This document shows, piece after piece, positions 61,960-64,000 of a stretch of DNA of 64,000 nucleotides. Location of the stretch: assembly GCF_055900595.2 (NCBI RefSeq), contig NZ_CM148325.1; one strand, written 5' to 3'. Within the stretch, counting starts at the first letter, position 1. Each line of letters begins with the position of its first letter. The notes below the pieces were generated by a model. It searched no databases and was not told the origin of the DNA. It saw only the letters and a program-made list of their open reading frames with translations. The translations under genes and the position numbers were made by a program.

Positions 61960-62443
61960 GCGCCGTAAAACCCCGTCCTTCAGGGCAGGGATATAAGGCG
62001 CGGTTTTCCACCTGACCAGGTGTTTGCTGTTGTTCAATGTATTGGCGGATGACGGATATTGGCGCACCTCCGCAGCTACTGGCAAAATAGCCAGCACTCC
62101 ACAAAACGCCTTTGTAGTAATACCTGACTGCAATATCTGGTCGATCTCGTCGCAGTCACCTACCCGATACGCCTTTGAGGCTGTTTACCAGACTGGATAT
62201 CGCCAGTTTGGGAGGATAGTTAATTAACAAATGGACGTGATCTGGTTCGCCATCCATTTCAACCAGTTCAGCTTCAAAATCAGCGCATACATTTGAAAAG
62301 TAAGCGCGTAGTTTTTCTGTCGCGTCATGGTCAAAAATCTGACGTCGGTATCTGGTGACAAAGACCAGGTGAACATGCATCAGGAAAACACAATGCCTTC
62401 CACGCCGGATATCGGTTTCTTTTTTCACAGACCAAAGTATCAT
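61960..62443 (-). pseudogene. tnpA: IS200/IS605 TnpA (HUH Y1 transposase) interrupted by an in-frame TGA
   Basis: N-terminal 95 codons (HVHLVFVTRYRR and DHVHLLINYPPKLAISSLVNSLKG motifs) end at a TGA (62156-62158); the same frame continues with LRRDRPDIAVRYYYKGVLWSAGYFASSCGGAPISVIRQYIEQQQ, holding the catalytic-Tyr helix, and then runs on with no proper stop. Confidence 0.7.
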
Positions 62444-62450
62444 TTGGCCT

Positions 62451-63659
62451 GTGAAACGACTACAGGCATTTAAATTCCAGTTAAGACCAGGTGATCAACA
62501 GGAGTGTGAAATGAGGCGCTTCGCAGGCGCATGTCGTTTCGTTTTCAATCGTGCTCTGGCGCTTCAGAATGAGAATCATGAGGCCGGTAATAAATACATC
62601 CCTTACGGGAAAATGGCTTCCTGGCTGGTTGAGTGGAAAAATGCCACTGAAACGCAATGGCTTAAAGATTCTCCCTCACAGCCATTGCAACAGTCACTGA
62701 AAGACCTTGAGCGGGCTTACAAAAACTTCTTCCGGAAGCGGGCTGCTTTTCCCCGATTCAAAAAGCGGGGACAGAATGATGCATTCCGCTACCCGCAGGG
62801 CGTTAAGCTCGATCAGGAAAACAGCCGTATTTTTCTGCCGAAACTGGGCTGGATGCGTTACCGCAATAGCCGTCAGGTCACGGGTGTTGTGAAAAATGTC
62901 ACTGTCAGCCAGTCCTGCGGTAAGTGGTACATCAGTATTCAGACAGAAAGTGAAGTATCCACTCCGGTTCACCCTTCAGCATCAATGGTCGGGCTGGATG
63001 CTGGCGTGGCTAAACTCGCCACGCTGTCAGATGGCACAGTCTTTGAGCCTGTAAACAGTTTTCAGAAAAACCAGAAGACGCTGGCGAGACTTCAGCGACA
63101 GTTAAGCCGCAAGGTCAAATTCAGCAACAACTGGCAGAAGCAGAAACGCAAAATACAGCGACTGCATTCCCGTATCGCAAATATCCGCAGGGACTACCTT
63201 CACAAAGTCACAACGACCGTCAGCAAAAACCACGCAATGATAGTCATTGAGGATTTGAAGGTCAGCAACATGTCAAAGTCAGCAGCGGGTACGGTCAGCC
63301 AGCCGGGGCGCAATGTCCGGGCAAAATCAGGTTTAAACCGTTCGATACTGGATCAGGGCTGGTATGAAATGCGCCGCCAGCTTGAGTACAAGCAGCTCTG
63401 GCGTGGCGGTCAGGTGCTTGCTGTTCCGCCAGCGTACACAAGCCAGCGTTGCGCGTGCTGTGGTCATACAGCGAAAGAAAATCGCCTGTCACAAAGTCAA
63501 TTCAGATGCCAGGTATGTGGATATACAGCGAACGCCGATGTAAACGGCGCTCGTAACATTTTAGCGGCGGGGCACGCCGTTCTTGCCTGTGGAGAGATGG
63601 TGCAGTCAGGCCGCCCGTTGAAGCAGGAACCCACCGAAATGATTCAGGCGACAGCCTGA
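62451..63659 (+). CDS. tnpB: TnpB (IS605 OrfB family, RuvC-like putative RNA-guided nuclease)
   Basis: 402-aa ORF with N-terminal OrfB-type region ([13 protein letters not shown]), RuvC-I GLDAGV, RuvC-II IEDLKV, zinc finger CACCGH...CQVCG and Ruv[15 protein letters not shown]; the start could instead be the ATG at 62511. Confidence 0.85.
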
Positions 63660-63698
63660 ACGTAGCAGGGATCCTCGTCCTTCAGGGCGTGGAGGATG

Positions 63699-64000
63699 TC
63701 AACAAACAGGTTGAATTAACTCCGCGCCCTGGTTTTTGACATTACCTACCGCGCGCGATACCGGGTGCCAGGTGAACTGGTTTGCTGGCACACAGCCGTT
63801 GGTAGCAATTTCTGATGCTTCTTTACCGCCAATCTCTTGCCGCATCCATTCCCGCGCAGCTTCTGGCGACAGTACCAGCGGGCGGCGGTCATGAATATCT
63901 ACCAGACCCTGGTCTGCTGCTGCAGTGACAATTAAAAATCCTTCGGCTTCGTCACCGCGCTCAAACGGTGTGCTACCTATCGCGGCCATAAAAACAGGTT
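63699..64000 (-). CDS. yedK: SOS-response-associated peptidase YedK, C-terminal part (gene continues beyond window end)
   Basis: Minus-strand translation ...MAAIGSTPFERGDEAEGFLIVTAAADQGLVDIHDRRPLVLSPEAAREWMRQEIGG...NVKNQGAELIQPVC matches the SRAP family C-terminus; stop at 63699-63701. Confidence 0.75.
   Translation of the reverse strand, partial: PVFMAAIGSTPFERGDEAEGFLIVTAAADQGLVDIHDRRPLVLSPEAAREWMRQEIGGKEASEIATNGCVPANQFTWHPVSRAVGNVKNQGAELIQPVC

Follow-up and report, generated by a model that had tools for sequence, protein, structure and literature searches.

Can an insertion sequence whose transposase gene is interrupted by a stop codon still carry a usable RNA-guided nuclease unit? The question is raised by one end of a 64,000-nucleotide stretch of DNA, referred to here as the window, in which an earlier note, made from the letters alone, described an element with a disabled tnpA and an apparently intact, divergent tnpB. 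We put the probability at about 85% that this region is an IS609-like copy with a dead Y1 transposase gene, in which tnpB and the scaffold of its guide RNA (omega-RNA) are intact at the sequence level. What such a copy may still do is a separate matter, on which several readings of very different probability bear. The element, its broken tnpA and its intact tnpB are already known, from RefSeq annotation and from the published K-12 equivalent, and an ordinary, previously annotated insertion sequence carries little weight as a discovery. The gains lie in its exact ends, its TTAT target and predicted target-adjacent motif (TAM), its predicted guide, and a covariation-backed scaffold for the omega-RNA of E. 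coli IS609.

The element and its insertion at yedK

The window holds a single IS609-like IS200/IS605 element, at 61955-63702 (Table 1); the earlier note recognized its presence but set its limits at 61960-63760. The family assignment also stands: the tnpA frame matches the NCBIfam model transpos_IS200 at 145.4 bits (cut-off 55, E=9.5e-43) and the tnpB product matches guided_TnpB at 391.8 bits (cut-off 100). Other hallmarks of the family are present: insertion 3' of a fixed tetranucleotide without target-site duplication, subterminal imperfect palindromes in the same orientation in place of terminal inverted repeats, and a gene for a Y1 (HUH) tyrosine transposase, here a pseudogene. The element is called IS609-like here: RefSeq names the O157 tnpA 'IS609 family', but the window TnpB is only 85% identical to the purified 'IS609' TnpB whose sequence is in the supplement of PMC12781874.

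Both boundaries are fixed by the empty site of strain PMV-1, the kind of comparison that the earlier note had proposed: the empty allele reads ...CCAGGCTTAT|CAAACAGG..., with one TTAT and zero extra bases, and the insertion has thus produced no target duplication. The sequence common to copies at different loci begins and ends at the same two positions. The TTAT lies directly 5' of the element, outside it, and precedes the element at all six E. coli insertion sites compared.

The left end contains the imperfect palindrome CCCCGTCCTTCAGGGCAGGG at 61971-61990, preceded by AAAA (61967-61970), which we infer to be the guide tetranucleotide; in the right end, the terminal TCAA (63699-63702) lies 10 nt 3' of the palindrome foot. 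The 13-mer CGTCCTTCAGGGC, which the earlier note had reported at both ends, occurs exactly twice, in direct orientation, at 61974-61986 and 63676-63688, and none of 100 shuffles gave two matches. Folded singly as DNA, the two end hairpins were no more stable than shuffled sequences (z=0.0 for the left and -0.8 for the right), so the support for them comes from the repeat and from covariation: seven of the nine pairs of the right-end hairpin have compensatory changes in relatives. The conserved region closes with GGAGGA(T)GTCAA in 43 relatives, and the flanks diverge beyond it. Two mismatches mark the hairpins of the window copy: the base at 61987 is A throughout the seven yedK-site copies, creating a C.A mismatch in the left-end stem, and G in copies at other loci, and a T.T mismatch at 63675 falls in the right-end hairpin (U.U in the terminal stem of the RNA).

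Table 1. Features of the element and its surroundings (positions in the window)
Feature	Position	Strand	Basis
TTAT target tetranucleotide (left cleavage site, predicted TAM)	61951..61954	+	six insertion sites and empty site
Left end (LE)	61955..62012	+	start of sequence common to copies; 13-mer inside
tnpA pseudogene, Y1/HUH transposase	62013..62443	-	translation, comparison with intact copies, NCBIfam, RefSeq note
tnpB, RNA-guided endonuclease gene, 402 aa	62451..63659	+	open reading frame, alignment to ISDra2 TnpB, NCBIfam
Predicted omega-RNA scaffold (conserved structured region)	63556..63702	+	covariation in 35 relatives, RNAalifold, Rfam hints
Right end (RE)	63660..63702	+	end of sequence common to copies; palindrome 63673-63692
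yedK, 3' part (gene leaves window)	63699..64000	-	empty-site comparison, genome annotation
Predicted omega-RNA guide, CAAACAGGTTGAATTAACTC	63703..63722	+	inferred from TnpB mechanism (PMC8612924; bioRxiv 10.1101/2023.03.14.532601)

The element arrived through 'peel-and-paste' transposition of a single strand, which placed it 3' of a TTAT overlapping the yedK stop codons. The earlier note located the right end correctly at the yedK stop at 63699, but the two do not merely abut: the right end supplies the TGA stop itself (63699-63701) as well as the third base of one additional codon, and YedK ends in ...IQPVC in the window versus ...IQPV in the empty-site strain, a gain of one Cys. Transcription continuing across the right end would yield RNA antisense to yedK. 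The insertion is present at this site in 667 of 5,426 complete E. coli genomes (~12%); most genomes lack it, and natural empty alleles exist.

A broken tnpA beside an open tnpB

Both defects that the earlier note had read in tnpA were borne out. Followed on the minus strand from 62443, the frame meets an in-frame TGA at codon 96 (62156-62158), where intact copies in O157:H7, whose TnpA is WP_000604943.1, and in strain MG48 have TTA for Leu96, and the truncation precedes the helix bearing the catalytic Tyr119 (Tyr and HUH positions were taken from alignment to the solved IS608 and ISDra2 TnpA structures). The natural TAG of the same two strains, at 62013-62015, is CAG in the window; the frame therefore crosses the left end into the flank and, past the TGA, stays open to 61769. 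In addition, Pro117, adjacent to Tyr119, is replaced by Ala. RefSeq describes the same locus in a 100% identical genome as a tnpA pseudogene, 'internal stop; missing C-terminus'. Judged from its sequence, the copy is unable to move by itself because of the TGA, the lost stop, Pro117Ala and the mismatch in the left-end hairpin.

Among 12 sampled E. coli copies, seven of them at the yedK site, on which all lesion and selection figures for the two genes rest, tnpA is fully intact in two and differs by stop loss only in a third; besides the TGA, lesions include a TAA at codon 76, start codon loss and deletions. Intact tnpA was found in 37 of 80 relatives, and the family as a whole behaves as a mobile insertion sequence.

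The tnpB gene begins with GTG, 7 bp from the divergent tnpA start. Its product aligns end to end with ISDra2 TnpB (PDB 8BF8/8EXA; E=8e-55), and the residues on which the earlier note had based its description of an intact nuclease are all in place: the RuvC triad D183, E267 and D363 aligns with D191, E278 and D361, and C334, C337, C353 and C356 of the CxxC...CxxC zinc finger match the four cysteines of the ISDra2 protein. A nuclease-dead derivative of the TldR type was considered and rejected, as all three catalytic residues are present.

The predicted guide RNA and what it may still do

The putative omega-RNA scaffold takes in the final ~100 nt of tnpB together with the right end; its 5' limit, 63556, is the start of the conserved structured region and not a mapped RNA 5' end, and conservation ends at GTCAA. 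RNAalifold applied to 35 aligned relatives gave 40 pairs, 23 of them with compensatory changes; 95.8% of the cells are paired as against 42-47% with the partners slid, and none of 500 shuffles reached the observed values. Every helix is retained in the window copy. Folding of 63480-63722 as RNA (z=-3.0) is suggestive, though weaker than the covariation test. An Rfam search filtered by E-value only, not by gathering scores, returned RAGATH-18, HgcC and sot0042 at 63532-63715; all lie under their gathering scores and are therefore taken as hints only. Together, covariation and these sub-threshold matches support the preservation, at the sequence level, of a guide-RNA unit formed by the tnpB 3' end and the right end, and to that extent the suggestion of the earlier note that such a unit persists holds.

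The predicted guide lies in the flank and reads antisense to the 3' end of yedK. The sequence matching it directly follows TTAT in the empty allele and TCAA in the occupied one, and no self-target for the guide was found at the occupied locus, because TCAA stands where TTAT would. The target listed for purified IS609 TnpB begins with TTAT, in a column annotated PAM/TAM in red (PMC12781874), and TTAT is the predicted TAM of the window TnpB. On this model, transcripts through tnpB would be processed into omega-RNA whose 3' guide is the yedK flank from 63703. With this omega-RNA, TnpB would cleave DNA in which TTAT precedes CAAACAGGTTGAATTAAC, the arrangement found in the empty yedK allele, and the occupied locus would escape cutting by virtue of its TCAA. 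As long as the element is not excised, the nuclease would normally find nothing to cut in the cell. The unit would then be a remnant of the means by which a selfish element secured its own retention, possibly still competent; that omega-RNA and TnpB may be made and active in the window strain is an inference.

The best-surviving alternative, tentative but to be taken seriously, is that the whole element is an inert relic, which forms no TnpB-omega-RNA complex or an idle one, and that tnpB is open because little time has elapsed or because recombination with other IS609 copies refreshes it. A consensus scan for promoters and terminators, uninformative on the whole, gave nothing useful for either tnpB or the omega-RNA; it showed no sigma-70-like promoter for them, a gap that fits a relic. 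From two of the seven yedK-site copies (Ecol_517 and MIN6) 100 bp have been deleted, and with them the right-end hairpin and the greater part of the scaffold, so loss of the unit is tolerated. Two SNPs in tnpA are combined in all four possible ways among the copies, a mosaic that implies exchange between them, and recombination of this kind could have passed on a low tnpB pN/pS inherited from active copies. What a relic does not readily explain is the state of tnpB, open in 10 of the 12 copies as against two with fully intact tnpA. Its pN/pS is 0.27 overall and 0.25 even within the yedK-site copies; of its 59 variable codons, 30 vary by synonymous changes alone, versus 22% expected (p=1.5e-6). 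This excess is tempered by the comparison of the two genes, whose synonymous and non-synonymous counts do not differ significantly (Fisher p=0.22), as a relic would predict. The retention of every catalytic residue and every scaffold helix again counts against inertness.

At the other extreme, tnpA-dead IS609 copies might be kept because TnpB and omega-RNA still work, cutting empty yedK alleles at TTAT+CAAACAGG...; we consider this unlikely. Purifying selection on tnpB (pN/pS 0.25 with tnpA disabled) would then be explained by the continued function of TnpB. If true, the insertion would act as an allele-specific drive or a recombination barrier long after the death of its transposase, with incoming or recombinant empty yedK alleles, the state carried by most E. 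coli strains, as its targets. Whichever reading holds, insertion polymorphism and natural empty alleles make the yedK locus a convenient native test system for an orphan TnpB-omega-RNA unit; no functional work on the native E. coli protein turned up in literature searches for insQ or ydcM with TnpB.

A less probable proposal still is that the host has domesticated TnpB, for example as an RNA-guided regulator of yedK or a defence nuclease, so that it no longer serves the transposon. Purifying selection in copies with dead tnpA and the opposition of right-end transcripts to yedK would suit it. Yet the catalytic RuvC residues are all present, whereas TldR proteins, the known exapted regulators that resemble TnpB, are nuclease-dead; the guide consists of ordinary flank DNA, like that of every IS605 element; the insertion is missing from most E. 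coli genomes and partly deleted in others; and the presence of intact tnpA in so many relatives speaks for a family that is mobile as a whole.

Very improbable, too, is a leaky TGA from which a little full-length TnpA, made by readthrough, would sustain very low residual mobility. UGA followed by C is a weak, leaky stop context, and the window has TGA CTG; moreover, the identical TGA is found in copies at two loci, yedK and ydcO, as if TGA-bearing elements had moved. This distribution is, however, equally explained by mobilization in trans or by gene conversion, and the readthrough product would carry Pro117Ala beside the catalytic Tyr and an 81-residue extension, the latter because the tnpA stop codon is lost. 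No transposition is seen for the K-12 copy, which shares the TGA, and the independent lesions in other copies fit plain decay. Lastly, a sequencing or assembly error, the objection that the earlier note had raised against its own reading, is refuted for practical purposes: the stretch 61900-63760 recurs with 100% identity in at least 17 independent complete genomes, the TGA is present in 6 of the 12 sampled copies, an exact 59-mer carrying it forms the top match for 2,596 records, so that the TGA allele is found in ~2,600 E. coli records, and nothing was found in favour of an error.

Relation to known elements

The closest relative with a published history is IS609 of E. coli K-12 (the insP/ynck pseudogene and insQ/ydcM, next to ydcO), which shares the organization and ~98% nucleotide identity: it has the TGA at codon 96, the TAG to CAG stop loss and an intact 402-aa tnpB. 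Its stop codon and its lack of transposition have been published (PMC2891674; PMC5009759), and mutation-accumulation lines yielded 0 new IS609 insertions (PMC5009759). The window copy differs in Pro117Ala, in the C.A mismatch of the left end and in the T.T mismatch of the right end. It also occupies a different site, the yedK stop codon as opposed to the ydcL-ydcO intergenic region, and the flank-derived guides therefore differ.

IS608 of Helicobacter pylori, on which the mechanism of IS200/IS605 transposition has been modelled, resembles the window element in its Y1 HUH TnpA, fixed tetranucleotide, lack of target duplication and subterminal imperfect palindromes, and its right end likewise closes in TCAA 10 nt past the palindrome foot (PMC3201880). 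The details diverge: the target is TTAT in the window and TTAC in IS608, the tetranucleotide 5' of the left palindrome is AAAA rather than AAAG, the left cleavage site lies 16 nt instead of 19 nt from the palindrome foot, and the two genes point away from each other, in the manner of IS605, whereas in IS608 they are co-directional.

For the nuclease, the reference is ISDra2 TnpB of Deinococcus radiodurans (PDB 8BF8, 8EXA, 8H1J), which shares with the window protein a full-length alignment, the RuvC D/E/D residues and the zinc finger. The window TnpB differs by a 15-residue insertion after the RuvC-II glutamate. The TAM of ISDra2 TnpB is, from general knowledge, TTGAT, versus the predicted TTAT in the window. 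In ISDra2 a structured RNA spans the tnpB 3' end and the right end and takes its guide from the flank (PMC8612924), an arrangement that is predicted for the window.

Finally, tnpB-only IS200/IS605 elements, e.g., those of Geobacillus stearothermophilus, have like the window copy kept tnpB and the omega-RNA without a working tnpA; there the transposase gene is gone, whereas the window remnant is nearly full length and point-mutated. A tnpA lies near only ~25% of tnpB genes, tnpB-only elements can be mobilized in trans, and the family is most often found with tnpB but no functional tnpA (bioRxiv 10.1101/2023.03.14.532601).

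Element boundaries and the yedK junction

The IS609-like element belongs to the IS200/IS605 family, as the earlier note had proposed: its tnpA sequence, once repaired, falls into transpos_IS200 (NCBIfam), and it is inserted without target duplication. Copies that sit elsewhere, at five loci (ydcL-ydcO of a K-12 derivative, a TetR-family gene of O157:H7 and PRO_A-1420, yoaI/yeaQ of MG48, and yajI of 144), have sequence in common with the window only within 61951-63702. The note had also suggested comparison with an empty site, which strain PMV-1 provides; this site reads ...CCAGGCTTAT/CAAACAGGTTGAATTAACTCC..., with one TTAT and no duplication. 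Together, the limits of common sequence and the empty site place the element, with the terminus ...GGAGGATGTCAA, 3' of TTAT. The TTAT target, the lack of duplication and these ends are hallmarks of IS200/IS605 single-strand transposition.

Coordinates of the features in the window
Feature	Position	Strand	Basis or remark
IS element	61955-63702 (1,748 bp)		copies at other loci and PMV-1 empty site
tnpA ORF	start 62443, TGA 62156-62158 (95 codons)	minus	ORF list, translation
tnpB ORF	62451 (GTG)-63659 (402 codons)	plus	ORF list
Predicted omega-RNA scaffold helices	63556-63699		RNAalifold consensus, 35 sequences
Right-end (RE) palindrome	63673-63692		TCAA terminus 10 nt past palindrome foot
yedK stop TGA	63699-63701	minus	ORF list

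The 13-mer CGTCCTTCAGGGC, said to mark both presumed ends, does have two plus-strand occurrences in the 64-kb window, at 61974-61986 and at 63676-63688, and two matches were obtained in 0/100 shuffles. The geometry matches that of IS608: TCAA ends the RE at the same distance from the palindrome foot, and AAAA stands just before the left palindrome in the place of the IS608 AAAG, which pairs with a TTAC target (PMC3201880); by analogy, AAAA would be the guide tetranucleotide for TTAT. Each hairpin contains one mismatch, C.A at 61987 in the left-end hairpin and T.T at 63675 in the RE hairpin, the latter in place of an A-T pair present in the K-12 and O157 copies; TnpA provided in trans might recognise both hairpins less well for it. 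The A at 61987 is common to all seven aligned yedK-site copies, which points to one insertion event at yedK.

The right end does not just abut the yedK stop codon, as the note had it, but contains it, the stop being supplied by the RE TCAA: YedK ends in ...IQPVC in the occupied allele, and in ...IQPV followed by a TGA that overlaps TTAT in the empty one. On the other side of the element, the AT-rich sequence that separates ybcM from the IS has no ORF and holds three tandem copies of a 20-bp unit, GTTGTTATTAAATCTAGTTT (61332-61391). Between ybcM and yedK, PMV-1 has ~1.2 kb with an ompC-like porin gene (positions 1267-2501 of its locus, L002) that is absent from the window, which has ~53 bp there (61348-61400), including part of the tandem repeat. 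The genes emrE-ybcL-ybcM, which in K-12 are part of the DLP12 prophage, lie between fliE and yedK (window ~59300-61040; 3282-5141 in the annotated comparison locus, L001). Sampled K-12-type records share with the window only ~13 nt to the left of TTAT and diverge beyond.

A dead transposase gene beside an intact nuclease gene

The in-frame TGA reported after tnpA codon 95 is present, and the frame reads on past it to 61769. O157:H7 (WP_000604943.1) and MG48 (WP_000604942.1) encode intact TnpA proteins of 143 aa each, with TTA (Leu) at codon 96, where the window has TGA, and TAG as the natural stop at 62013-62015, where the window has CAG; the window also carries Pro117Ala. Alignment to solved TnpA structures identifies H69/H71 as the HUH motif and Y119 as the catalytic tyrosine, so that the 95-residue product ends before its nucleophile. 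Judged by these lesions, the transposase gene is dead, as the note had supposed. The TGA is genuine: at least 17 of 5,426 complete E. coli genomes are 100% identical over 61900-63760 (megablast), and the exact 59-mer with TGA is the best match in 2,596 records, its TTA version in 2,524. The TGA allele is thus common; the K-12 copy has both the codon-96 TGA and the CAG stop loss.

The RuvC residues and zinc finger ascribed to TnpB are borne out by alignment of residues 3-376 to ISDra2 TnpB (8BF8/8EXA/8H1J; E=8e-55), which puts D183, E267 and D363 opposite the RuvC triad and C334/C337/C353/C356 opposite the zinc finger; the guided_TnpB score, 392 bits, far exceeds the cut-off of 100 (NCBIfam). 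TnpB shares 85% identity with the purified "IS609" TnpB of PMC12781874, whose listed target starts with TTAT, marked PAM/TAM in the supplement. The tnpA (ATG, 62443) and tnpB (GTG, 62451) start codons are divergent and 7 bp apart (62444-62450), so the promoter of each must sit inside the other gene; a consensus scan found none for the divergent pair.

A predicted guide-RNA scaffold and a proposed mechanism

The suggested guide-RNA region at the tnpB 3' end and RE is supported by comparison with 80 relatives (protein identity 58-95%; one genome scanned per species) from Enterobacterales, Burkholderiales and other groups. Their tnpB 3' regions have blocks in common, e.g., GCCTGTGGAG, GAAGCAGGAACCC and GTAGGAATCC, and all finish in GGAGGA(T)GTCAA, beyond which the flanks are unrelated. 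RNAalifold on a 35-sequence alignment predicts 40 pairs, 23 with compensatory changes; 95.8% of scaffold cells are paired, versus 42-47% with partners slid by 1-3 columns, and none of the scaffold measures was reached in any of 500 shuffles. Every helix is kept in the window copy, bar one U.U mismatch at 63675. Rfam gives sub-threshold matches only, to RAGATH-18, HgcC and sot0042 (63586-63629, 63596-63715 and 63532-63693, respectively). In archaea, HgcC and sot RNAs are transcribed from tnpB genes at their 3' ends, and the three separately curated families may describe portions of TnpB omega-RNAs.

To the anatomy, lesions, conservation and target site read directly from the genomes, the established TnpB mechanism (PMC8612924; bioRxiv 10.1101/2023.03.14.532601) would add the remaining steps. 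The guide portion of the omega-RNA, the TnpB guide RNA, would be the flank that begins at 63703, and TnpB would then cut at TTAT+CAAACAGGTTGAATTAAC, i.e., the empty allele of yedK. Where the element is inserted, the locus carries TCAA in place of TTAT, contains no self-target and would thereby be spared. With TnpA dead, the empty donor joint would not be made in the cell, and the nuclease would consequently be idle as a rule. No promoter was predicted for tnpB or the omega-RNA.

Copies in E. coli and place among known elements

The element region is present in almost all of the 5,426 genomes, the RE-yedK junction in 667 and a PMV-1-type empty site (>=80% of the query matched) in 456; in the sampled junction-free K-12-type and O157-type strains, the yedK end is unoccupied too and the left flank is different. 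Of 12 aligned copies, seven sit at yedK and the other five elsewhere. Among them, tnpA is fully intact in two, and a third, PRO_A-1420, differs by stop loss only; the lesions comprise the codon-96 TGA (six copies), stop loss (seven), a codon-76 TAA, deletions of 17 bp and 4 bp, and a lost start codon. The tnpB ORF is open in ten; it is broken in Ecol_517 (L013) and MIN6 (L011), both at yedK, by loss of 100 bp between direct repeats of GTGGAG (equivalent to 63595-63694). This deletion takes out the RE hairpin and the greater part of the omega-RNA scaffold, spares the 13 nt at the very end of the element and leaves a 387-codon ORF overlapping yedK.

Synonymous-only changes account for 30 of 59 variable tnpB codons (22% expected; p=1.5e-6), with a pN/pS of 0.27 over all copies and 0.25 at yedK, and for 8 of 23 in tnpA (p=0.13; pN/pS 0.47); between tnpA and tnpB, the difference in synonymous to non-synonymous counts is not significant (Fisher p=0.22). 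All four combinations of TGA/TTA (62157) and CAG/TAG (62014) occur among the 12 copies, at different loci, and blocks of tnpB SNPs are distributed as a mosaic. Both patterns indicate that IS609 copies exchange sequence, by recombination or gene conversion, and this exchange weakens the case for selection on single copies.

The observation holds but is an ordinary one. The nonsense mutation is already in annotation, RefSeq listing in the identical genomes a tnpA pseudogene ("internal stop; ... missing C-terminus"), an InsQ/TnpB family RNA-guided endonuclease and yedK. For the K-12 copy it is also in print: the IS609 stop codon and absent transposition were reported in 2010 (PMC2891674), and mutation-accumulation lines yielded no IS609 among 758 new IS insertions (PMC5009759). 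Both the family, of which the element is typical, and the element's state are already known: a tnpA lies near only ~25% of tnpB genes (bioRxiv 10.1101/2023.03.14.532601), and among the 80 relatives the divergent tnpA is intact in 37, partial or interrupted in 16 and absent from 27.
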